Positions 365-14,072 of a DNA stretch of 64,000 nucleotides are shown piece after piece; the first letter of the stretch is position 1; every line of letters begins with the position of its first letter. The stretch comes from Candidatus Sysuiplasma acidicola (GTDB lineage Archaea > Thermoplasmatota > Thermoplasmata > Sysuiplasmatales > Sysuiplasmataceae), in the NCBI GenBank assembly GCA_019721035.1, contig JAHEAA010000003.1:54994-118993 (forward strand), read 5' to 3'. The position numbers and the translations under genes were made by a program. Below the pieces are notes generated by a model, which made no database searches, was not told the DNA's origin, and saw only the letters and a program-made list of their open reading frames with translations.

Positions 365-1519
365 ATGAAGAACATTTTAGTGGCAGGCGGTGGGCTCGGC
401 GGAACGATTGTGGCAAACAGAATAGCGCAGAAGCTGTCAAATGAGATCGAAAAGGGGGAAGTTGGCGTTACTGTTCTCGACAGGAATGACAAGCACTTCT
501 ATCAACCCGGATTTTTGCTCGTTTCGATGGGTGTGATGGAGCCTGCAGAGACGCATGTCCCGGAGCGCTCTGTTCTCGACAGGCATGTGAAGTTCCTTAC
601 CGGGGACAAAGGAACGATAACCAGGATAGATGCGGCCAACCACTCGCTAGCCACCGCAGACGGAGCCACTCACAGCTACGATCAGCTCGTCCTCTCTACG
701 GGTTCACACCTTCAATTTGACGAGATACCCGGATTCGCCGGCGGCGCTGATACTTTCTTCAATCTCGAAAAGTCTACTCAGATGTGGAAGAAGATTCAGT
801 CATTCACGGGCGGCAGAATTGTTGTTGACACCGCGAGCCTCCCTCATAAGTGCCCGGTTGCGCCTCTCGAAATAACGCTGATGCTGGACGACTACTTCAG
901 GAAGAAGGGTATCAGGGACAAAGTTCAGATTGATTACTGCTACCCAGTCCCGGGCGTGTTCGGCATACCCAACGTGAACCGCATGATGGCAGGAATCTTC
1001 GCAGAAAGAGGAATAAACGTACACAGCCAGTTCACACTGGCCTCCGTTGACGGCGGCGCCAGGAAGATAACATCGAAGGAGGGCGAGTCGCTGGACTACG
1101 ACCTGCTGGTAAGCGTGCCACCTCACAAGGGCGCGCAGGTGATAGGGGACTCCGGCCTCGGCGACAGGAGGAACTGGGTAGGAACAGACAAGTTTACGCT
1201 CCTTGTGAAAGGGTATGACAACATTCATGCCATGGGTGATACTACCGACATAGCAATATCGAAGGCAGGTTCCACTGCTGACTACGAATCATACACTGTC
1301 AGTCACAACGTGGCAGCAGATGTCATGGGCACGGACGGAAAGAAGACCTATCCCGGCACGGTGTTCTGTTTCATAGCGACGGGCATGGATCAGGCAACGT
1401 ACATAAAATTCGACTACAACCATCCGCCGGTGCCTCCAACCCCCTCCCAGATCTACTGGTGGAGCAAGCTTGCCTACAACAAACTCTACTGGAGCATCCA
1501 CGCCAGGACAATGGTTTGA
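365..1519 (+). CDS. sqr: FAD-dependent sulfide:quinone oxidoreductase-like flavoprotein
   Basis: 384 aa. N-terminal Rossmann motif GGGLGG; HFYQPGF motif characteristic of the SQR / flavocytochrome c sulfide dehydrogenase branch of pyridine-nucleotide-disulfide oxidoreductases. Flanked by TusA-, DsrE- and DUF1641-like genes. Confidence 0.65.
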   Translation: MKNILVAGGGLGGTIVANRIAQKLSNEIEKGEVGVTVLDRNDKHFYQPGFLLVSMGVMEPAETHVPERSVLDRHVKFLTGDKGTITRIDAANHSLATADGATHSYDQLVLSTGSHLQFDEIPGFAGGADTFFNLEKSTQMWKKIQSFTGGRIVVDTASLPHKCPVAPLEITLMLDDYFRKKGIRDKVQIDYCYPVPGVFGIPNVNRMMAGIFAERGINVHSQFTLASVDGGARKITSKEGESLDYDLLVSVPPHKGAQVIGDSGLGDRRNWVGTDKFTLLVKGYDNIHAMGDTTDIAISKAGSTADYESYTVSHNVAADVMGTDGKKTYPGTVFCFIATGMDQATYIKFDYNHPPVPPTPSQIYWWSKLAYNKLYWSIHARTMV

Positions 1520-1521
1520 CG

Positions 1522-1914
1522 GTGTTCTGCTTGCGGCTCTCAATAATACTCGGTTCCAACCATCTGGAAAGGGTGGAATTTGCGTCGATGACCGCATTCC
1601 TGGCGTCCAGCATGGGGGAGGAGGTAAACATATTTGCCACCATGGACGGCGTAAAGGCATTCGGCAGGGAACCTGTAGTGCTGTCTGAGGCAGAGTCCGC
1701 CGCAATGATAGTAAAGTCCGAGGCGGGCGGTAGATTTGCGGAGTATTTCAGGAAGGCTAAGGAAACGGGAAAGGTCAGAATAACGGCCTGCAGCATGGCC
1801 TCTAAGTTATTCAACCTGCGCAAGGAGGACTACTCGGATGTGGTCGACGGCATCGGAGGTCTGACTTCGTTTCTCGATTCTTCAGAGGGAAGCAGTATGA
1901 TCAGCATCTGGTGA
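1522..1914 (+). CDS. DsrE/DsrF-like sulfur-relay protein
   Basis: LSIILGSNHLERVEFASMTAFLASSMGEEVNIFATMDGV resembles the DsrE/DsrF N-terminus. Proposed start is GTG 1522 (alternatively TTG 1531), directly after the sqr stop. The ORF-track ATG at 1459 would overlap sqr by 60 nt and adds residues not expected in DsrE. Confidence 0.55.
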   Translation: MFCLRLSIILGSNHLERVEFASMTAFLASSMGEEVNIFATMDGVKAFGREPVVLSEAESAAMIVKSEAGGRFAEYFRKAKETGKVRITACSMASKLFNLRKEDYSDVVDGIGGLTSFLDSSEGSSMISIW

Positions 1915-2834
1915 TTGAGTTGAGCGGTGAAAGTACAGAAGGTGTGAGGAGCCTGACGTTGAACGCGGAGGAAGAGAAACAGGTACGCGAGTTTATTGCA
2001 AATATACCACGCTTCAACAGCGTAATGAAAGAGTTCTCGACGATGGTGAATGAAGGACAGATTGAAGCCATGTCGCAGGCACTGGCAGCACTGCGCTTCC
2101 TCAAGGACGGACTGAACGACGAAGCGATAGAATCGCTGTCGAAGCTTGGCGGAAGACTCACGGATGTGGCATCCGCCGCTTCATCAGAGCAGTCTATGGC
2201 TGTCATCGGCAGCCTGAGTTCCGAGGGAAAAGAGCTTTCCGAACTCATAAAAGACATAGGAAGGATGCACAGAGACGGCGTCTTCGACTCGGTGGTTAGC
2301 GCAGCATATGCACTGAAGTTCCTCAAGGACGGACTGAACGACGAGGCAATCGAAAATATCGCCTCCGGCATGGCAGACATGCTTTCCATTTCGAAGAAGT
2401 ACTCTTCTCTTCTGTCCGGTGAGGAATTACCTTCTGCTCTGGCAACAGTGTCCAGACTTGAGCGTGACGGTGCGCTTGACGCACTTGTGGATGCGGCATA
2501 CATTATCAAATTTCTCCGGGACGGACTGAACGACGAAGCGCTGTCCAACATTGCATCGTTGCTGTCCGAACTGCTAAGGCAGTGGCATTCCCTTCACAAT
2601 CTCATAGACATGCTTTCGTCTCCGGTTGCTACGCGGGTGTTCAATACGCTGACGGACGAATCGCTTGAACAGAGGCTGGAAAAAGCGCCGCCAAGGAAAG
2701 GCGGTATGTCTCTGCTGTCCCTCTCTGACCCGGATGTCAGAAAGGGCTTCGGCGTTGTATTTGAGCTGCTGAAGATATTCGGTCAGGAATTCAAGACCGA
2801 GGTCACGACTGATGGCGTGACAGACAAAGACTGA
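1911..2834 (+). CDS. DUF1641-like protein with three tandem repeats
   Basis: Three ~65-75 aa repeats, each containing [AL](L/I)(K/R)FL(K/R)DGLNDEA(I/L). The motif and gene context next to an SQR-type flavoprotein fit the DUF1641 family. ATGA overlap with the upstream gene. Confidence 0.5.
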   Translation: MIELSGESTEGVRSLTLNAEEEKQVREFIANIPRFNSVMKEFSTMVNEGQIEAMSQALAALRFLKDGLNDEAIESLSKLGGRLTDVASAASSEQSMAVIGSLSSEGKELSELIKDIGRMHRDGVFDSVVSAAYALKFLKDGLNDEAIENIASGMADMLSISKKYSSLLSGEELPSALATVSRLERDGALDALVDAAYIIKFLRDGLNDEALSNIASLLSELLRQWHSLHNLIDMLSSPVATRVFNTLTDESLEQRLEKAPPRKGGMSLLSLSDPDVRKGFGVVFELLKIFGQEFKTEVTTDGVTDKD

Positions 2835-3583: not shown

Positions 3584-4062
3584 TTGGAGAATACAGAAAG
3601 CGGGCTTCCCCTGCGGGCATCGATAAACCAAGTCTGCACATAGCAGGTGCCGTTCTTTCCTCTGCCACGTCGGCGTTATTTTTCATACTTGCGCCAATAC
3701 TCTATATGCAGGCGGCATCATCATATCCACAACTGGGTTTCAACTCGATGAGCGTCTGGACCCAATCTGCGATTCTGCTAGGTTCGATCTTCATGTTTCT
3801 CAATGCGGGTGCGGTGCTTCTCGGAAACGAAAGAATCGCAGGCGTCATTCTGAGGGCGGCATCACAGGTTGCAATAGCCTATTATGTAATCTCCGTCGTC
3901 GGACGCCCCTTTACCATAACTGTCCAGGGCAATTATCATCTCTCTATGGCCATTTACTACATCGCGCTGATCCTGGCCTCGTTTGCCCTTCTGAGAATCA
4001 TACCGTCCTTCGTGGAATACCTGGAATACAGACGTTATGTCCGCGGTGCCTCAGTCGTTTAG
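3580..4062 (+). CDS. hypothetical polytopic membrane protein
   Basis: 160 aa with about 4 predicted TM helices. ATGA overlap with the upstream gene. Confidence 0.4.
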   Translation: MIGEYRKRASPAGIDKPSLHIAGAVLSSATSALFFILAPILYMQAASSYPQLGFNSMSVWTQSAILLGSIFMFLNAGAVLLGNERIAGVILRAASQVAIAYYVISVVGRPFTITVQGNYHLSMAIYYIALILASFALLRIIPSFVEYLEYRRYVRGASVV

Positions 4063-4391
4063 AAAAATGATTGATTCGCGGAAGGGATGCGCGATCGCCT
4101 GATCGCCGGATGTTCCTCTGCAGATTCAGCTCCGCTGAACTCTATTTTGAACTGTTCCAGTTCCTTTGAGATGCGCGCATTTCTGCATATGGGGCATTCT
4201 ACCGGCTTATGAAGCCTGTGCTTCACAGTGACGACGCAGCTGTCCAGATTTATTCTCACGCCGCAACTGTCACATTCCACATCAAGCATATCTCGTTCCG
4301 CCATGTGATGCACCGTTTCCCCTATACGACTGCCCCATTGCACAAACAGCACTGAGCGCATTATTCCGAAGCAGTCTTCGGGTAACGACAT
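4059..4391 (-). CDS. small Cys-rich zinc-ribbon-like protein
   Basis: 110 aa with CDSC...C and CPIC cysteine pairs (Zn-ribbon-like). Lies 8 nt downstream of the large sensor gene on the same strand. Its 3' end overlaps the convergent gene by 4 nt. Confidence 0.35.
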   Translation of the reverse strand: MSLPEDCFGIMRSVLFVQWGSRIGETVHHMAERDMLDVECDSCGVRINLDSCVVTVKHRLHKPVECPICRNARISKELEQFKIEFSGAESAEEHPAIRRSRIPSANQSFF

Positions 4392-4398
4392 GTTTCAC

Positions 4399-7300
4399 TT
4401 AATCGTTTGCATCGGTTTCTGTCGAATCCGGTTTGTCATTATCAAATTTCTCCAGCTCTGTGCTCAGGTACCCCTTTCTCATCTCACCGACATTGACTTC
4501 TTCGAAAAGTTTTTCGAGTATCGCAAGCTCCCTCTGTTCAAACGTCATCTTGTCAACGGCGACGACCAGTACGGAGGATGTGTCGACAGTCTTCTGCATC
4601 ACGCCCTCGAGCATGCCCATGACCTTTATCATGCTGTTATTAGAGAGCAGATACTCCAGTCCGTCAATAAACACAACTGCATTCTTGTGCCTCTCGATGA
4701 ACGAGAGCATCGCGTTGCCGATTACGGAAAGTTTGGCAGGATCGAGGTTGCTGTTGCCCACAACCTGGGTCAGCCATCTGATCTCAGTGTTTCCCATATC
4801 GTACTTCTCCCTTAGCTTGGAGGGATGCTGCCTCGTAATCACGAGTGGATTGAATCCTGCCTTCTTGAAATCGACGAGGGCAAGATACGCGAACAGCGGC
4901 TTCTGTTCTGCTATCATATAACTGAAGCCTCGTTTCATCGCATACCTCACGCCCTCTATCTGTGAATGCGCTGCACTGGAAACTTCCGCGCCCTTCACTC
5001 TATTCGGCTGATCCTTCGGCTCCTGCGTTTCGTTCTGCGGTTCTTCCTTCAATCTCAATATGAGGCCCCTTCTGTTTCTGCCGGAAAGTGGAGAGGCGGA
5101 AACAATGACTCTTTTAGCACCTTCGGCCGAGGCAAACAGATACGACGACTCAAACCTCTCGCCCTTCCTGATATTTTCTGTGAGATCAACAATCTGATAC
5201 GTATCCACTTCGTCAAGCAGCGAGACAATTTTCTCCACTGCAACTCCGGGCTGCATCGACAGCAGCTGCTTTGCCGCACTGTTAATAAACTCGATATTTC
5301 CGGACGTATCCACTCTGATGATCGGTTCGTCTATTCCGTCCAGTATCTCTGCCAGTTCTGTCCATTTCAGCTCAGCCGCCCTCTTGAGCTGTTTTTCCTG
5401 TTTCAGTGTCTCCACTGCAGAGTATGAATTGATAACATTCGATGCGAGTCTGTCCAGCAAGGCAACATCACTCTCGCTGAAGCCGTCAGAGCCGAATCTG
5501 TTTATGAGCAACAGCACTGCCCTTATCTCAGTTCCGCTGTCCTTGAACAGCGGATACATCAGCATCTCCCTGACGTAGCTGCCTGAAACCGGCTCAGTTT
5601 CAATTTGCGCGCTCCTGAAGTCGTTTATTATCATCGCTTCCCCCTTTTCTGCTGTCTTCAGGGCCAGTTTTTCAATTGAATCCGGTATCCGCGTCTCGAA
5701 GTATCCGCTCCATTCTATGTAGGAGGAAGACAGCACCCCCGCGAGCGCGTACTCAGTTCCAATTATGTGCCCCGCTGCGGATGCGAACGCATCCATCATG
5801 CTCCCGAACTCCGTGTGTGCCCCAACCTTTTTTCCTATTTCGTCCACCGTGCTGATGAGACCATGCCTGCGTCTCTCTTCAGACAATGCTGAAAGCTGTC
5901 TCACTTTTCGCGACACAAACGGTGCCATTTCGTTGTAGATGTGCATGTGTTCGGTGGTATCGCAGTCTCCGGCGTAGCCGGCAATGAACAGAAGGTCTGC
6001 CCCGTCAATCGTACTCATTCTCCATGTCGCAAGTCTGTTTCTGAATATGACCGGCACATTTTCGTCGTCCGAAGGCGGAAACTCAATTGCCTGTGATTGC
6101 GTTCCGTGCGTTCCTGTCAGGTGCGCTGCATATTTCATCAGTGTTTCCTGAGGCACGACTCCGCCACCGCCAGAGGAGGCTACAAGTCTGAGAATCCCAG
6201 ACACATAATCCACCGAGTAGATGGCCGCGAAGGAAGCATTGAGCCGCGCTACGGCATAGTCGCAGACTTTTCCGTAGATCGACTGAACATCAACCTCTTC
6301 AACAATCGCGTCTTTGAATGCCGCCAGCTTGTTCAGGCGCACAACATCCGCATGACTGTTTCTGCTTGTCTTGATGCTGATGTGACGCGAGTTATAGAAA
6401 TCAAGGAGTCTCTGAGTCACGGTGTTCCTGTACACGTCCTTCCTGAGGTTCGACTGAAAATCGAAACCAATGAGCACCACAGACTGACCATCCTTCTCCG
6501 ATGATTCGTGTATGAGCATATTCCTGAATCTCGGTGCAGTGCCTTCGATAAAGTCTGCGCCGAGTGAATCAATCGCCGCAGAAGTCGCCGACTCGCCTTC
6601 CAGTGTGTACGTTCTCGTCGCAAGCTTCGTCATCTCGTGCAATACCGTGCTCAGAGATGTAGCATCGGCAGAGCATCCGCTCTCTTTGAAAGACTCACTG
6701 TCTGCGCATATACACTGCAACCGGCTCTCTCCGCTTCTCCTGAGCAGAAGCATACCAGCCTCACATGTTGAAAATTTTAGTGCGCTGTCCAGTACTCTGG
6801 ATGAAAATGTGTCACTGTCCGGATTGTCAAGGCTCTCAATCAGTTGTTCGGACAGCAGCGAATGCATGGCGTTTTCCTTCTCTTTTTCCACATATGACTT
6901 GTGAATCTCCATGGCAGCATTGGCCCGCTCCATCACAGTGGAAAATTGCCTTCCGGTTATCTCCGCCATCTCAATTTCTTCCGCCGAAAACGTGTTCTTT
7001 CCTATTCTGTGCAATGCAATGACTCCAATGTCTTCTCTGACGCTCTTTATGGGTATGGCAAGAATCGCTTCGGGCTCGTTAGGTGTGCCGGGTATGCTTA
7101 TCGACGAAGCATCCGCGTTCGCCTCCTGTATGTGCACCGGCTTGTCTTTCGATATGGTCCTTCCGACGATTCCTTCTCCAATCTTAACGGAGAATGAGAG
7201 CATTTCTTCTGCGAATACGCCTCTCGACGTCACCGGAATCAGCAGCGATCTGCCCTCGTTGAGCACATAGAAGACAGAAATGCTTGACGGAATGACTGAA

Positions 7301-8454
7301 TTTATGAATGAGAGTGCCTCCTCCGCGATCCGCACGGGATCGTTTTCCCTGTGGAGCAGAAGAATCTCCTCCAGAAGCATGTTTCTGAACAGTATTTTTC
7401 TGTTCTTTTCCTCAATGAGCAGACTGGAGGACATTCTTGCTCCGAGAACCTGGGACAGAAATTCGACATCCCTGAATTCAAAATCATCGAGAGGAACCGG
7501 AGACTTACTCTCGAGTATCAGTATTGCGCTGCTTTTCGAGTTTGTCTTTACAGGCACAAGTGCAGCCCACTTCGTGCCTGTTCCGAGCGGTTTATAGCCA
7601 ATAGACTCGATATCTTTTATGACGAGGGGTTCGCTCTGAGCTGCAACTCCGACGATCATGCTGCTGAGGCTCATACTCTGCGGGTTGTCGTATAATGGTG
7701 TTAGCGATTCACTCATTCCTGCGAACTCGAGCGCGTGCCCGGTTTCATCGGTCACCATCAGGGCAACATAGTCTATACCCATTCTCTTCTGTATTATGTC
7801 TGCAATCTTGTTAAGAACGTTGTTTGCGAGCGCCCCTTCATGCAACTGATTTCCAAGTTCGATTGCCGCTGTAAGTCTGGAAGCGTGGGAGAGATGTTCG
7901 CCGACCACAAATTCTCTTCTGACAACCGAGTCAAATATCCTGTCAACAAGCGCAAGCGCTAGTTCTTCATCCATGCTGAGCTGCCTGCGCACACCCACAT
8001 AAGTGTACAGCGTCGGCGCCCCTCTTTCTGTTCCGCGGAAGAGGATAAAGTCAGTGACTCCCGTCGCGAGCGCAACCTCATCAACGAGTCTGATGCCGGA
8101 ATTGGGCGCCTTTATCGACTTTTTGCTATCCCCGAAATCGGCGTTGAGCGGCAGCAGATCCTCATATTTCGTTTCGCCTGGTTCGCCGAGGAGCTCCTGA
8201 TGGCTCGTCCATCTGAATCGGAGATCCCTGCTGATGACCACAAAAATGACGAACATATCCTTTCTGAGTCTGGTAATCTGCCTGCCGAAGGAGAAGAGAA
8301 GTGATTTCCAGTCTCCTGCATCTGTCAGGACGTCGACGCCTGCGGATATCAGACGCTCAAAAGAGTCGACGCTGCTTCCCGCTACCGGGAGAGCGCTGCC
8401 CTTGAGTGCTGCGCTCGTGACAAACTCATTCATTTTTACTTCATTCTCTGGCAT
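4399..8454 (-). CDS. 1351-aa multi-GAF/PAS sensor protein with C-terminal DUF835-like domain
   Basis: Long cytoplasmic protein with several GAF-like and PAS-like repeats. The C-terminal ~150 aa (KRGFSYMIAEQKPLFAYLALVDFKKAGFNPLVITRQHPSKLREKY...VVFIDGLEYLLSNNSMIKVMGMLEGV...) match the archaeal DUF835 pattern. No kinase, HTH or other output domain recognised. Confidence 0.6.
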   Translation of the reverse strand: MPENEVKMNEFVTSAALKGSALPVAGSSVDSFERLISAGVDVLTDAGDWKSLLFSFGRQITRLRKDMFVIFVVISRDLRFRWTSHQELLGEPGETKYEDLLPLNADFGDSKKSIKAPNSGIRLVDEVALATGVTDFILFRGTERGAPTLYTYVGVRRQLSMDEELALALVDRIFDSVVRREFVVGEHLSHASRLTAAIELGNQLHEGALANNVLNKIADIIQKRMGIDYVALMVTDETGHALEFAGMSESLTPLYDNPQSMSLSSMIVGVAAQSEPLVIKDIESIGYKPLGTGTKWAALVPVKTNSKSSAILILESKSPVPLDDFEFRDVEFLSQVLGARMSSSLLIEEKNRKILFRNMLLEEILLLHRENDPVRIAEEALSFINSVIPSSISVFYVLNEGRSLLIPVTSRGVFAEEMLSFSVKIGEGIVGRTISKDKPVHIQEANADASSISIPGTPNEPEAILAIPIKSVREDIGVIALHRIGKNTFSAEEIEMAEITGRQFSTVMERANAAMEIHKSYVEKEKENAMHSLLSEQLIESLDNPDSDTFSSRVLDSALKFSTCEAGMLLLRRSGESRLQCICADSESFKESGCSADATSLSTVLHEMTKLATRTYTLEGESATSAAIDSLGADFIEGTAPRFRNMLIHESSEKDGQSVVLIGFDFQSNLRKDVYRNTVTQRLLDFYNSRHISIKTSRNSHADVVRLNKLAAFKDAIVEEVDVQSIYGKVCDYAVARLNASFAAIYSVDYVSGILRLVASSGGGGVVPQETLMKYAAHLTGTHGTQSQAIEFPPSDDENVPVIFRNRLATWRMSTIDGADLLFIAGYAGDCDTTEHMHIYNEMAPFVSRKVRQLSALSEERRRHGLISTVDEIGKKVGAHTEFGSMMDAFASAAGHIIGTEYALAGVLSSSYIEWSGYFETRIPDSIEKLALKTAEKGEAMIINDFRSAQIETEPVSGSYVREMLMYPLFKDSGTEIRAVLLLINRFGSDGFSESDVALLDRLASNVINSYSAVETLKQEKQLKRAAELKWTELAEILDGIDEPIIRVDTSGNIEFINSAAKQLLSMQPGVAVEKIVSLLDEVDTYQIVDLTENIRKGERFESSYLFASAEGAKRVIVSASPLSGRNRRGLILRLKEEPQNETQEPKDQPNRVKGAEVSSAAHSQIEGVRYAMKRGFSYMIAEQKPLFAYLALVDFKKAGFNPLVITRQHPSKLREKYDMGNTEIRWLTQVVGNSNLDPAKLSVIGNAMLSFIERHKNAVVFIDGLEYLLSNNSMIKVMGMLEGVMQKTVDTSSVLVVAVDKMTFEQRELAILEKLFEEVNVGEMRKGYLSTELEKFDNDKPDSTETDAND

Positions 8455-8811: not shown

Positions 8812-9429
8812 ATGTCCGACGATATCGTCCTTAATGATTCAGCTCAGGGTTATGCAGGGAGCGGCACACTCCCATTTGCATCCGGAGCGTTGGCGCAGGA
8901 GCATGCCGGAATGAGTTCCGTCGGGTACATCGGCGATGGTCTCAACGAATCGACACTATTCGAACTTGAGCAGACAATAAACACCATATTGAATGCAGCA
9001 CGCAACAGGCGTGAGATGGAGACGGAGAGGGTCGTGATGTATTCAAAGGCGCTGAACAGCCTGTGCAGATCCGTGCTTGAGAAGGCGGAAGAGCGTATCG
9101 GCAGCCTCTCTACTACGCGCCCGACAGAGCCAGGAATAGAGGTTAAGCATTCCTCTCTGCTGCGTTCTGTTTCTGAAGTCCGGTTTCCGTACGGACCGGC
9201 GCTGAGTCAGGATAACTGGTCAAGCCTGTGTTCCCTCCTCATGAAGAGACTCGACAGGTACGGCTGCATTATAACACAGCGCGACAGGAGGTTTCTTTCG
9301 GAAGCTTCCGGCATTGACGTCTCTCCGTACATATGGTCAACGCTGGTGAAAAGGCTCGACCTCAGGAGAGTGAAGAATCCCTATTCCGCTTCTTCACTGG
9401 TCATATATGTCCCCCGCCTGAAGAAATGA
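8812..9429 (+). CDS. hypothetical protein
   Basis: 205-aa ORF, divergent from the sensor gene. No recognisable motif. Confidence 0.35.
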   Translation: MSDDIVLNDSAQGYAGSGTLPFASGALAQEHAGMSSVGYIGDGLNESTLFELEQTINTILNAARNRREMETERVVMYSKALNSLCRSVLEKAEERIGSLSTTRPTEPGIEVKHSSLLRSVSEVRFPYGPALSQDNWSSLCSLLMKRLDRYGCIITQRDRRFLSEASGIDVSPYIWSTLVKRLDLRRVKNPYSASSLVIYVPRLKK

Positions 9430-10586: not shown

Positions 10587-10907
10587 GTGCATCCTAGAGA
10601 AGGTGCTGCGGACGGACGTCCGAAAGCGAAGGATGGGATGAGTATACAGAAAAATCGAGCGTCTCCGGTCAGGATAACATCTTCACAGATTGCAACTTTT
10701 GTGTACTGTGCAAGGAAGTACAGTATATCGGTTTCCCTGCCCCCTGATTACGTTGAACCTGCAGCTGTCCGTGAGAGAAAACAGGGCGGTGTAGTCTATC
10801 ACAGAACGAAAGGGCGCGTCATGATGAAGCTTCGTCTGAGAAGGTTGATATTGCTTGCCGCAGGAATGCTGGCACTCGCGGGAGCCATGATCATATGGCT
10901 ACGATGA
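10587..10907 (+). CDS. cas4: Cas4/DUF83-family nuclease, N-terminal segment (split or frameshifted gene)
   Basis: ITSSQIATFVYCARKYSISV matches the Cas4 N-terminal Cys motif (I..S....YCpRk.yl). GGVVYHR matches the G...H motif. Ends in a hydrophobic helix (LILLAAGMLALAGAMIIWL). Overlaps the next ORF by 13 nt in a different frame. Confidence 0.45.
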   Translation: MHPREGAADGRPKAKDGMSIQKNRASPVRITSSQIATFVYCARKYSISVSLPPDYVEPAAVRERKQGGVVYHRTKGRVMMKLRLRRLILLAAGMLALAGAMIIWLR

Positions 10908-11359
10908 CCCTTCTCGCCTTATTCCTCTTCACAGCGGGCGTTGCGATAATCATATACTGGCTGTTTGCAGCGGATCATATGCATTCAACCGATCTCTCAG
11001 GTTCAGGAACGCTGCTCAGATCGGATCGTTATCCTCTCACCGGTAAACCTGATGTTGTGCTGAAAAAGGGGCGGACGTTCATGCCTGTGGAATACAAGAG
11101 TTATGATGCCGGAGGAAGTGCCAGAGAATGGGATGTTGCACAGCTGCTGTCTTACTGTCTTCTGATAGAAGAGTGCAGAGGCAGAACGAAGGGAGGAAGA
11201 CTGGTGTACCGTGACATGGAATTTTTCATTCCCTGGGACGGCCGCTCCAGGCGATATGTCGAAAACATAATGCTGGAAATGCTCGAAGGGTATGACCGTA
11301 TGACCGACGACAGATGGAAATGCAATATGTGCGAGTTCAAAGACTTCTGCGGAAGGTGA
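10895..11359 (+). CDS. cas4: Cas4/DUF83-family PD-(D/E)XK nuclease, C-terminal segment
   Basis: Begins with a TM-like helix (LLALFLFTAGVAIIIYWLF). Then LTGKPDVVLKKGRTFMPVEYKS (motif II Asp, motif III ExK), QLLSYCLL (QxxxY) and the C-terminal CNMCEFKDFC cluster completing a Cas4-type 4-Cys Fe-S site. Confidence 0.5.
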   Translation: MATMTLLALFLFTAGVAIIIYWLFAADHMHSTDLSGSGTLLRSDRYPLTGKPDVVLKKGRTFMPVEYKSYDAGGSAREWDVAQLLSYCLLIEECRGRTKGGRLVYRDMEFFIPWDGRSRRYVENIMLEMLEGYDRMTDDRWKCNMCEFKDFCGR

Positions 11360-11631: not shown

Positions 11632-13089
11632 TCAATCCTCTATTCCTTCGGCTCCGGAAATCTTTCCAGTCAGTTGCCTGCTACCAATCACTGCACCGTT
11701 TACACCGCCGGTCAGTTTTTTCAGTTCCTCTATTTCATCGCGATTCATCATGACCATCAGGTTCACGCTGTCCCGCACGCCGCTCCCTTTCCCGTCCTGC
11801 GGCTGAAGGGTTAACGTGAGTCGCACGCCCATCTCCGTAATCGTGTGGCTGTCGATCCCCGTGTATCCCCTTTCACCGTGATGGGCTATGTCCAGTCCGG
11901 TATGCTCCTCCTCAACCGGCACCCTGACTCCCATCACGTAATCGAGCACTTTCAATATGCCAATCGTCATCAGAAACGAGTATGCAGATGAGGCTGCAAC
12001 AGCTATCAGCTGGACTTCAACCTGTCCCGGATTTCCGTAAAACAGTCCGTTAGCCCCGCCCGAATTTACTGCGACGGTTGCAAAAAGGCCGGTTGCGATC
12101 GCGCCCCACGCACCTCCTACTCCGTGGACTCCGAATGTGTCCAGTGTGTCGTCGACCTTCGTTCTGTTCCTCCATGCAACGGCATAGAAACAGATGGCGC
12201 CGGCTCCGAACCCCACTGCCAGCGCTCCCCATATGTTGACGAAGCCTGAGGCAGGCGTGATGGCAACGAGTCCGGCCACGGCACCGGAGGCAGCACCGAG
12301 CATGCTTGCCTTCCCAGTGTAGTGCCAGCTCAGTCCCAGCCAGGTAAGCGAAGCAAGTGCTGCGGCTGTGTTTGTGACTATGAATGCATTGACTGCCAGT
12401 GCGGAGGCTCCGAGCGCCGATCCTGCATTGAATCCGAACCATCCGAACCAGAGAAGGGCCGCGCCAAGTATCGTCAATGTCGGTTCTGCGTGCGCGGTGC
12501 CGTCGCTTTTTGTCAGTCTCGGCCCGATGAAAAGGGCAGCGGCGAGGCCTGCAACTCCGGCGTTCAGATGGACGACGGTGCCGCCGGCGAAATCGAGTAT
12601 GCCCATCCCGTGCAGCCATCCGTCATAGGCCCATACCCAGTGCGCCACAGGATCGTAGACGAGTGTTGTCCAGGCAAGCGTGAAGACAATGAACGTCGAA
12701 AATTTCATCCTTCCGACAAACGCACCGCTGACGAGGGCGGGCGTGATCACGGCAAACATCGCCTGGAAAATCATGAATGTGCTGATGCTTATGTTCTGAA
12801 TGCCCGGATAGGTGGCGCTGTACCCCATGTTGGCCATGCCAATGTACTGAGTTCCGCCAACGATGCCCTGCAGCACACCCGAAGGTCCTGGAGCGAAGGC
12901 TATGGAAAAGCCTACCAGTACCCACTGGATGCTGACAATCGTAAGCACAGCGAAGGACTGGCCGATCAGTGAAAGTATGTTCTTCCTGCCTGCCATCCCG
13001 CCATAGAAATAGCCCAGTGCAGGCGTCATTATCATGACGAGGGCGGCCGATGCAAGAACCCATGCCGTGTCTCCGCTGCTGATCGCCAT
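11632..13089 (-). CDS. amt: ammonium transporter Amt with ~90-aa C-terminal extension
   Basis: 485 aa with 11-12 TM helices and Amt/MEP signature stretches (DFAGGTVVHLNAGVAGLAAAL, twin-His region). GGAGG SD 8 nt upstream of the ATG. Extra C-terminal soluble tail of unknown function. Confidence 0.85.
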   Translation of the reverse strand: MAISSGDTAWVLASAALVMIMTPALGYFYGGMAGRKNILSLIGQSFAVLTIVSIQWVLVGFSIAFAPGPSGVLQGIVGGTQYIGMANMGYSATYPGIQNISISTFMIFQAMFAVITPALVSGAFVGRMKFSTFIVFTLAWTTLVYDPVAHWVWAYDGWLHGMGILDFAGGTVVHLNAGVAGLAAALFIGPRLTKSDGTAHAEPTLTILGAALLWFGWFGFNAGSALGASALAVNAFIVTNTAAALASLTWLGLSWHYTGKASMLGAASGAVAGLVAITPASGFVNIWGALAVGFGAGAICFYAVAWRNRTKVDDTLDTFGVHGVGGAWGAIATGLFATVAVNSGGANGLFYGNPGQVEVQLIAVAASSAYSFLMTIGILKVLDYVMGVRVPVEEEHTGLDIAHHGERGYTGIDSHTITEMGVRLTLTLQPQDGKGSGVRDSVNLMVMMNRDEIEELKKLTGGVNGAVIGSRQLTGKISGAEGIED

Positions 13090-13108
13090 CCGTCAGACCT
13101 CCATACCT

Positions 13109-13135
13109 TTCTGTGTCATGCTCTTCTGTGTCATG
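13109..13135. repeat. tandem 12-nt direct repeat (TTCTGTGTCATG x2) in amt leader
   Basis: Copies at 13109-13120 and 13124-13135, 20-46 nt upstream of the amt ATG. In mRNA sense they read CATGACACAGAA-GAG-CATGACACAGAA and form a 13-codon uORF (MTQKSMTQKGMEV) that stops 3 nt before the amt start. Confidence 0.35.
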
Positions 13136-13313
13136 AACAGATGCAATATTTGAATGTTTAGTGAATATACTAAGTCAAATGATATGCTTATAGAATAATT
13201 TTTGATATTATGAGCATAGTAATTTAAGAAAAAGAGTGCATTTGCAATTACAACGTGTTTCTGAAGACTGACGCTGTTCGTGAAAATGATACCTGGGATT
13301 TTTCTGCAGCGAA

Positions 13314-14072
13314 CTATCTCCTCTGCTTGAATTCCGATGCAACGATGCGTTCGCCGTTCAGTCCGTCTGAATCGCTTGAGGCCAGAAAGACGGCCGGCGG
13401 TCCCATGATACCGGCATCCAGGAGTTTACCGAATGCATCTTCGGAAGTGCCTGGCGGAAACATGCCGCCCTTGACGAAGCCGCCGGGCGTCAGTATGTTT
13501 GCCGTTATGCCGCTGCCTTCCAACTCCTTCGCCATGATCATTGTAAGTGTGTCAGTAGCGGATCGTGTCGGTGAAAACGGTGCGAAACCCCTTATCGCCA
13601 GAAGTTCTCTGTCAACGTCCACATTCACAATCTTTCCTCTGCCCTGCTCAATGAAGGTGGGCATAAACGCCTGCGTCACCGCAAAATAACCAATGTAGTT
13701 AACGTCCATCGCCCTCCTCATCGATGCAATTTCGTATGTATGGAAGGGTTTTGCACTGAAGGCGAACGAGGGATTGAACTGTTCCATGCCTGTGCCGGCG
13801 CAGTTGAAGAATGCATCAACTCCTCCCCATCTGGAGTGGAGCAGATGAACTACTTCAGTTATGGAGTCATGCGATTCCACATCCATGACTACTGCGAACA
13901 CGTCCAGTCCTTCCTTTTTCATCTCGTGATTAGCTTCCTTGAGTCGCTCCCCGGCTCTTGCAGCCATTGCGACAAACGCTCCTTCCAGCAGCAGCGCTCT
14001 GACGATCGCCTTCCCTATGCTGCCGCTACCGCCAGCCACCAGCACCCTGACTTCCGAAAGTTTTCCGCTCAT
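13314..14072 (-). CDS. short-chain dehydrogenase/reductase (SDR) family oxidoreductase
   Basis: VLVAGGSGSIGKAIVRAL Rossmann motif and SDR-like length (252 aa). The catalytic YxxxK is not obvious, so this may be an atypical SDR. Confidence 0.6.
   Translation of the reverse strand: MSGKLSEVRVLVAGGSGSIGKAIVRALLLEGAFVAMAARAGERLKEANHEMKKEGLDVFAVVMDVESHDSITEVVHLLHSRWGGVDAFFNCAGTGMEQFNPSFAFSAKPFHTYEIASMRRAMDVNYIGYFAVTQAFMPTFIEQGRGKIVNVDVDRELLAIRGFAPFSPTRSATDTLTMIMAKELEGSGITANILTPGGFVKGGMFPPGTSEDAFGKLLDAGIMGPPAVFLASSDSDGLNGERIVASEFKQRR

Follow-up and report, generated by a model that had tools for sequence, protein, structure and literature searches.

A Sysuiplasmatales GAF-array protein with a P-loop-less DUF835 domain and a small zinc-ribbon neighbour

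Here, we describe a two-gene locus in a 64,000-nucleotide (nt) stretch of contig JAHEAA010000003.1 (the window, numbered from its first nucleotide) from Candidatus Sysuiplasma acidicola, an uncultured acid-mine archaeon of the order Sysuiplasmatales. The genes lie one behind the other on the minus strand and encode a large multidomain protein, the sensor, and a small zinc-ribbon protein (Table 1). A preliminary description of this DNA had reported open reading frames (ORFs) of 1351 and 110 amino acids (aa) within 4059-8454, and both are present, the first at 4399-8454 and the second, counted from the first ATG, at 4059-4391. We propose, with moderate confidence, that the locus encodes a cytoplasmic sensor of one-component style that signals through a DUF835 domain without P-loop.

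Table 1. Features of the sensor and zinc-ribbon genes in the window
Feature	Position	Strand	Remarks
Sensor gene	4399..8454	-	GAF-like x4-6, one PAS-like, DUF835; 11 full-length orthologues, 43-99% identity
N-terminal divergent GAF-like domain, aa ~31-195	7870..8364	-	Recognised by fold only; conserved motif YEDLLPLNADFG
GAF domain 1, aa 213-342	7426..7818	-	PF01590, E 4.4e-6, 27.7 bits against a gathering score of 22.4
GAF domain 2 (GAF2), aa 372-510	6925..7341	-	GAF_2, E 1.9e-12; GEGIVG motif
U1 (aa 516-705) and U2 (aa 706-865), GAF-sized	5860..6909	-	U1 without match; U2 possibly a degenerate GAF
GAF domain, aa 886-1006	5437..5799	-	GAF_2, E 1.6e-5, 25.6 bits, below the gathering score of 28.6
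Single PAS-like domain, aa 1033-1125	5080..5358	-	PF00989, E 1.6e-4, 22.1 bits, below the gathering score of 22.6
DUF835 (PF05763), aa 1192-1317, then helix and C-terminal DAND tail	4504..4881	-	E 5.8e-27 to 2.6e-28
Spacer, 94 nt	4305..4398	-	Shine-Dalgarno-like purine-rich GGGG...GGTG stretch before the ATG
Small zinc-ribbon gene, 81 aa	4059..4304	-	CxxC-x22-CxxCRNxR, acidic middle, basic tail ending in Phe

Public data contain 11 clusters of full-length sensor orthologues (1344-1364 aa), which NCBI already names 'DUF835 domain-containing protein'; the window itself shares 98.2% identity with a metagenome contig in ENA. Translation from M1 is favoured because the orthologues begin with M-x-E and have no Met at position 8. 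Scanning species-representative genomes with the sensor alignment recovered six species, all of them Thermoplasmata metagenome-assembled genomes (MAGs) and among them Candidatus Sysuiplasma superficiale and a Sysuiplasmataceae archaeon, together with unrelated bacterial GAF matches. A scan of genome contigs with a single sensor protein as query found nothing, and word-indexed searches, with four close matches for the zinc-ribbon and three for the DUF835 domain, lack the sensitivity needed to survey domain architectures. The sensor family is restricted to Sysuiplasmatales-type Thermoplasmata.

The sensor is cytoplasmic, as had been stated before, and a hydropathy scan found no credible transmembrane segment in it. 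Searches against Pfam and NCBIfam detected no HisKA, HATPase, REC, GGDEF, EAL, HD, HTH, MCP or AAA+ domain, which agrees with the earlier statement that the protein has no kinase, GGDEF, HTH or MCP output. NCBIfam kinase models match only across PAS regions and at 12-22 bits, against cut-offs of at least 240 bits; having neither HisKA/HATPase_c nor REC, the sensor falls outside the two-component proteins. The JGI name of one orthologue, 'transcriptional regulator with GAF, ATPase, and Fis domain', is unsupported by any hidden Markov model (HMM). A PADLOC check for defence systems returned no match for the sensor, the zinc-ribbon protein or three unknown neighbours.

The preliminary description had reported several GAF-like and PAS-like repeats. 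This holds for the GAF repeats, with Pfam GAF, GAF_2 and GAF_3 matches in three stretches of the sensor, but not for PAS, which is reduced to one borderline stretch at aa 1033-1125. Several PAS models match there, including the NCBIfam PAS regions of AtoS and FixL (E 4.5e-5). Two GAF modules score above threshold, the module at aa 886-1006 lies just below it, and the N-terminal one belongs to the family by fold alone. This last region had been left unassigned, and aa ~31-195 indeed match no HMM. An AlphaFold2 (AF2) model from 11 orthologues (predicted local distance difference test, pLDDT, 75) was, however, matched by Foldseek to phytochrome GAF/PHY domains and to the stand-alone GAFs of NifA (8jrc; template modelling score TMt 0.64), 3p01 and 3k2n, and the region is thereby predicted to be one more GAF module. 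Between GAF2 and the module at aa 886-1006 lie two further GAF-sized segments. U1 had no match in Pfam scans of each orthologue or in PDB sequence profile searches, and U2 weakly matched GAF_3 in 3 of 11 orthologues (E 0.013) and the PDB GAF 3ci6 at E 0.54. A profile-profile comparison of eight sensor segments with hhalign was uninformative, as even bona fide GAFs reached less than 5% probability with each other.

Conservation of the individual domains was measured against eight distant orthologues. Mean identity is 49.5% for the N-terminal domain, 50% for GAF domain 1, 60% for DUF835 and just 24-28% for U1 and U2; GAF2 is the best-conserved sensor domain (67%, 55 of 163 columns invariant), and constraint on the protein is strongest in GAF2 and DUF835. 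We read the architecture as four to six GAF-like domains, followed by one PAS-like domain and DUF835, with four of the GAF folds supported and six probably present. What sets the sensor apart is chiefly its long GAF array and the absence of a REC domain.

The C-terminal domain matches PF05763 at 94.6-98.9 bits against a gathering score of 33.1, over profile positions 11-136 of 136, and so bears out the DUF835 assignment of the preliminary description. The RecA/KaiC-like fold proposed there was likewise confirmed by an AF2 model of aa 1161-1351 (pLDDT 86; predicted template modelling score, pTM, 0.81), in which a five-stranded parallel sheet is flanked by helices in an alpha-beta-alpha arrangement. 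The best PDB match of this model in Foldseek is Sulfolobus FlaH/ArlH (4yds; E 8e-5, TMq 0.58), behind which rank dozens of chains of KaiC, RecA and Rho (probability 1.00, E 8e-5 to 1e-3). Weak FlaH matches to the sensor also occur at the level of sequence (NCBIfam PRK06067, E 0.022; PDB 4yds, E 0.57).

In the RecA superfamily, Walker A is located in the loop that joins the first strand to the first helix. No GxxxxGK[ST] motif exists anywhere in the sensor ORF. The loop between beta1 (residues 18-22) and alpha1 (residues 27-38) of DUF835 is instead a four-residue turn, E-[QED]-[KR]-x in 13 of 13 aligned sequences and EQKP in the window, and by the topology of the model this turn would occupy the P-loop position. 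PF06745 (KaiC) is unmatched at E <= 1, and the domain does not qualify as an active KaiC-like ATPase. According to its model, DUF835 here adopts a KaiC/RecA-like ATPase fold from which the Walker-A P-loop has been lost. The DUF835 alignment has invariant ITRxxP and hWLs motifs and an invariant strand that resembles Walker B, hhhhDGxE[YF]Lx2NN; all three persist in a stand-alone DUF835 protein of 28% identity (P0020) and in a REC-DUF835 protein of 31% identity. Behind the domain, the DAND tail (window 4402-4413) is present in 10 of 11 distinct aligned orthologues and reads DANR in one; in the more divergent sequences it is EAND in P0019/L035 and missing from the fragment in L034.

Several known systems share parts of this design. 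KaiC and KaiC-like ATPases (PF06745), which in archaea have reportedly been proposed as signalling hubs (Makarova 2017, as cited in PMC5847659), have in common with the sensor the RecA-superfamily fold, the proposed signalling role and fusions to or associations with sensor domains. Active KaiC, however, has Walker A and B, a catalytic Glu and autophosphorylation, whereas DUF835 here has no Walker A and misses the KaiC HMM. In NifA and FhlA (GAF-AAA+-HTH), N-terminal GAFs likewise precede a C-terminal domain of P-loop fold, but no sigma-54 AAA+ or Fis-type HTH is detectable in the sensor. FlaH/ArlH, the best structural match, is like DUF835 a single RecA-like domain. ArlH is a KaiC-like regulator that binds ATP without hydrolysing it and acts via oligomerisation and binding to ArlI (PMC8978795). 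It retains Walker A, unlike the P-loop-less DUF835, to which it is 15% identical, and no archaellum genes lie near the sensor locus.

A census of archaeal signalling proteins lists DUF835 as 'iKaiC', an inactivated KaiC-like domain that serves as output of REC-DUF835 and REC-PAS-PAS-DUF835 proteins in Methanomicrobia and Thermoplasmata (Galperin 2018, PMC5847659, Table 2). The loss of the P-loop seen here matches this label. In a literature search on DUF835/PF05763 the census was the only hit, and no experimental work on the domain was found. The sensor resembles the regulators of the census in placing the same PF05763 output C-terminally behind N-terminal sensor or receiver modules, in having no DNA-binding or enzymatic output and in its occurrence in Thermoplasmata, to which the regulators add Methanomicrobia. 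Unlike them, it lacks a REC domain and hence a connection to a histidine kinase, takes its input through a very long array of four to six GAF modules plus one PAS-like domain, and is confined to Sysuiplasmatales-type genomes.

The gene model of the zinc-ribbon protein had to be revised. The homologues in eight other species, 80-82 aa long, begin at a Met aligned with M30 of the window ORF, and in most of them the frame is interrupted by stop codons only a few codons before this Met. The 29 additional residues show no conservation, and 81 aa is also the length given independently by the ENA and Logan gene callers. The gene therefore spans 4059-4304, with its ATG at 4304, and is separated from the sensor by 94 nt; the 110-aa protein and 8-nt spacer given earlier are artefacts of taking the first ATG. 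Spacer length is 94-96 nt in nine genomes, though the proteins share merely ~45% identity. Its sequence is poorly conserved, except for TAAAAACAG...ATTAC past the sensor stop and the purine tract ahead of the ATG; the window and its two closest relatives have TAAGTGA... at the post-stop position. RNAalifold found no consensus fold in the spacer, no terminator-like site was found in it on the sensor strand, a scan for bacterial-type promoters and terminators stayed at background level, and neither Rfam nor tRNA scans of the window gave a match. Co-transcription of the two genes is plausible from this layout.

That the small protein is a Cys-rich zinc ribbon was correctly recognised, as CxxC-x22-CxxC is present and the longer pattern CxxC-x22-CxxC-R-N-x-R is invariant. 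The Sysuiplasmatales-type proteins end in an invariant Phe (window 4062-4064) behind a basic patch. No Pfam, NCBIfam or PDB family matched above threshold, and the best sub-threshold matches were DUF1178 (E 0.006, 17.5 against 31.6 bits), the FmdB zinc ribbon (E 0.065) and DUF7479 (E 0.22). Small archaeal C4 zinc-ribbons (Zn_ribbon_4, 5 and 8, LysW-like, DUF1178, DUF7479) likewise have a single CxxC...CxxC pair in less than 100 aa. The 81-aa protein, by contrast, matches each of them only far under threshold and belongs to an uncatalogued family with its own CxxCRNxR[IV] signature and an acidic stretch. An exhaustive profile search with a 4-row alignment as query retrieved 86 representatives, ~75 of them small proteins with the common core C.CG...LD..V..K..LGK..EC..CRN.RI. 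Long proteins among the matches, which might have been fusions, are spurious hits to C2H2 or treble-clef finger arrays, and none of the matches is fused to DUF835 or CobW.

Every sensor locus examined has a homologous small ORF behind the sensor, and in 11 distinct genomes the zinc-ribbon gene lies directly downstream on the same strand. Two of these genomes are divergent and were reached from the zinc-ribbon side: L034 encodes a 73-aa ribbon behind a DUF835 fragment that is 47% identical to the sensor, and in L035/L036 the ribbon adjoins a sensor of 47% identity across aa 981-1351. However, no fewer than five other genes around the pair, distributed over its two sides, show the same degree of synteny in the Sysuiplasmatales loci; among them are an upstream gene for a 205-aa protein, a saccharopine dehydrogenase gene and two convergent membrane-protein genes, and the conserved neighbourhood as a whole comprises about ten genes. 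The adjacency of sensor and zinc-ribbon therefore adds little information.

Other neighbours of the ribbon were found outside these loci. In three related contigs (L033, L037 and L038) it lies directly before the same AsnC-GT87-GT2-DUF2079 block as in the Sysuiplasmatales loci, and the 1.7-2.3 kb that these contigs extend upstream contain no sensor. In four other contexts (L028, L029, L039/L040 and the contig of P0027) it is followed by a CobW/G3E GTPase gene and a ~145-aa gene, which suggests that this uncatalogued small-protein family is linked to a metallochaperone. The arrangement spans 1910-2848 in L028, 2077-2919 in L029 and 6001-7369 in L039/L040, and the GTPase has a CxCC motif. L039/L040, from another Thermoplasmata lineage, also carry the REC-DUF835 relative (31% identity, E 8e-28) 3.6 kb upstream of the ribbon. 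This 324-aa response regulator (1395-2369) is encoded on the same strand as the CobW-linked ribbon, with enolase, a QRPTase-like gene and OsmC in between; the contigs of L028 and L029 begin inside enolase. Downstream of the distant stand-alone DUF835 gene P0020, the only one of its kind inspected, lies a gene of 76 aa whose product is no zinc ribbon.

In the one-component-style reading that we favour, one or more intracellular small-molecule or redox cues would bind the conserved GAF pockets, and the signal would run along the helical GAF-GAF-PAS linkers into DUF835. As the domain would be unable to hydrolyse ATP via a P-loop, it would signal by a shift in its own oligomeric state or by docking to a partner protein. 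The likeliest docking partner would be a ring of a RecA-superfamily or KaiC-like ATPase, by analogy to FlaH/ArlH acting on ArlI or to pseudo-ATPase subunits in RecA-like rings. Several observations weigh against this proposal. There is no KaiC-like ATPase in the 64-kb window, where the P-loop ORFs are four ABC-type ATPases only, and no KaiC-like gene within +/-10 kb in a near-identical sister contig; any such partner must therefore be encoded elsewhere in the genome. The PAS match and the GAF match at aa 886-1006 are under the Pfam thresholds, and U1 and U2 are poorly conserved and without assignment, so that some of the array may serve structure rather than sensing. Loss of the P-loop, finally, may still be compatible with another ligand in a conserved E/R/D/E pocket. 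Such a remodelled pocket could bind a non-nucleotide ligand or a phosphorylated residue and make DUF835 an enzyme or a second sensor. An invariant charged cluster (E1183, R1208, D1264, E1267) does lie at the would-be nucleotide site, within ITRxHP, RWLT and DGLEYLxxNN, and is kept in P0020 (28%) and REC-DUF835 (31%). Yet the P-loop is missing, no similarity to an enzyme family was found beyond the fold and the domain is regarded as inactivated in PMC5847659; we consider this explanation improbable.

The zinc-ribbon gene is genuine, probably co-transcribed with the sensor and a candidate partner of it. The preliminary description went further and offered the ribbon as a possible output of the sensor, a suggestion that is weakened here, as its sole basis is adjacency, seen in one order with equally syntenic flanks. 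The ribbon may well be independent of the sensor, with CobW/G3E or the AsnC-glycosyltransferase block as usual companion and with an adjacency that is merely inherited gene order, although we hold this tentatively. It would explain that the ribbon-CobW-~145-aa order recurs in four contexts, that AsnC directly follows the ribbon in three contigs without adjacent sensor and that one core motif is common to all of them. However, all three sensor-less contigs end ~2 kb upstream of the ribbon, so that a sensor may lie just beyond, no CobW gene is found beside the ribbon in any Sysuiplasmatales locus, and the CobW-linked proteins have no C-terminal basic/Phe tail, so that two subfamilies may differ in function. 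The same tail, together with the DAND tail of the sensor, speaks for a ribbon that is the dedicated output or partner of DUF835 and that, bound or released, then acts on DNA, RNA or protein. Such a partnership would also fit with the persistence of the gene pair down to 43-47% sensor identity, with the constant 94-96 nt spacer, its Shine-Dalgarno-like purine tract and lack of a terminator-like site, and with the REC-DUF835 gene upstream of a homologous ribbon in L039/L040. We nevertheless find it doubtful, given the equal synteny of at least five other flanking genes in the same genomes, the three AsnC-linked ribbons with no sensor within 1.7-2.3 kb upstream, the pairing of the wider family with CobW in all four other contexts seen, the distant P0020 without a zinc-ribbon neighbour and the lack of any ribbon-sensor fusion. 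A more specific form of this idea, which we think unlikely, is partner switching: the ligand state of the GAFs would set whether the pseudo-KaiC domain sequesters the ribbon, and the freed ribbon would hit a transcription or metal-dependent target. The association of DUF835 and ribbon would then be ancient in Thermoplasmata, given the neighbourhood in L039/L040, and the ribbon would, if this were true, be the first concrete effector placed downstream of any iKaiC/DUF835 output domain.

The description of the locus as an uncharacterised signalling module thus stands as far as experiments are concerned, but its output is already catalogued as iKaiC (PMC5847659) and its orthologues carry an NCBI name. 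The points on which that proposal was made to depend turned out in its favour: the DUF835 HMM matches, no conventional output domain is detected and the zinc-ribbon ORF is conserved in relatives. The sensor is a lineage-specific member of a known, experimentally unstudied class and not a new kind of system, and current views of archaeal signalling are not overturned by the locus. What is gained are corrected gene models (81-aa zinc-ribbon, 94-nt spacer), an N-terminus moved to the GAF fold and a newly recognised family of small zinc-ribbons, as yet uncatalogued, that usually have a CobW GTPase next to them. DUF835/iKaiC is among the archaeal signalling outputs without experiment, and the sensor family offers a clean case, with one highly conserved GAF, a well-folding DUF835 and a candidate small partner, that could show the role of a P-loop-less KaiC domain.

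Further genes of the neighbourhood are recorded here. The 205-aa protein (window 8812-9429, plus strand), divergently oriented to the sensor and without family match, is kept at that position in 8 of 8 Sysuiplasmatales loci at 32-58% identity and, as a candidate for functional linkage, ranks level with the zinc-ribbon. On the other side, an SQR-like Pyr_redox_2 gene, a DsrE-like gene and a gene for a 307-aa protein lie at window 365-2834 (plus strand). The 307-aa protein has three ~60-aa repeats, each with FL[KR]DGLNDEA, and weakly matches PF07849. The SQR-like/DsrE-like cluster is found in L003 and L026 and missing at this position in L001 and L002, and looks like a lineage-specific sulfur-metabolism insertion beside the locus. 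At window 10895-11359 (plus strand), a stand-alone Cas4-like PD-(D/E)XK nuclease (PADLOC Cas4, E 5e-16) is syntenic in L001, L003 and L026; no other cas genes were seen in the stretches inspected, and clustered regularly interspaced short palindromic repeat (CRISPR) arrays were not searched for. In L002, one Sysuiplasmataceae genome, a TnpB-like gene (Cas12f1-like_TNB; 12459-13571, minus strand) is located inside the AsnC-glycosyltransferase block.

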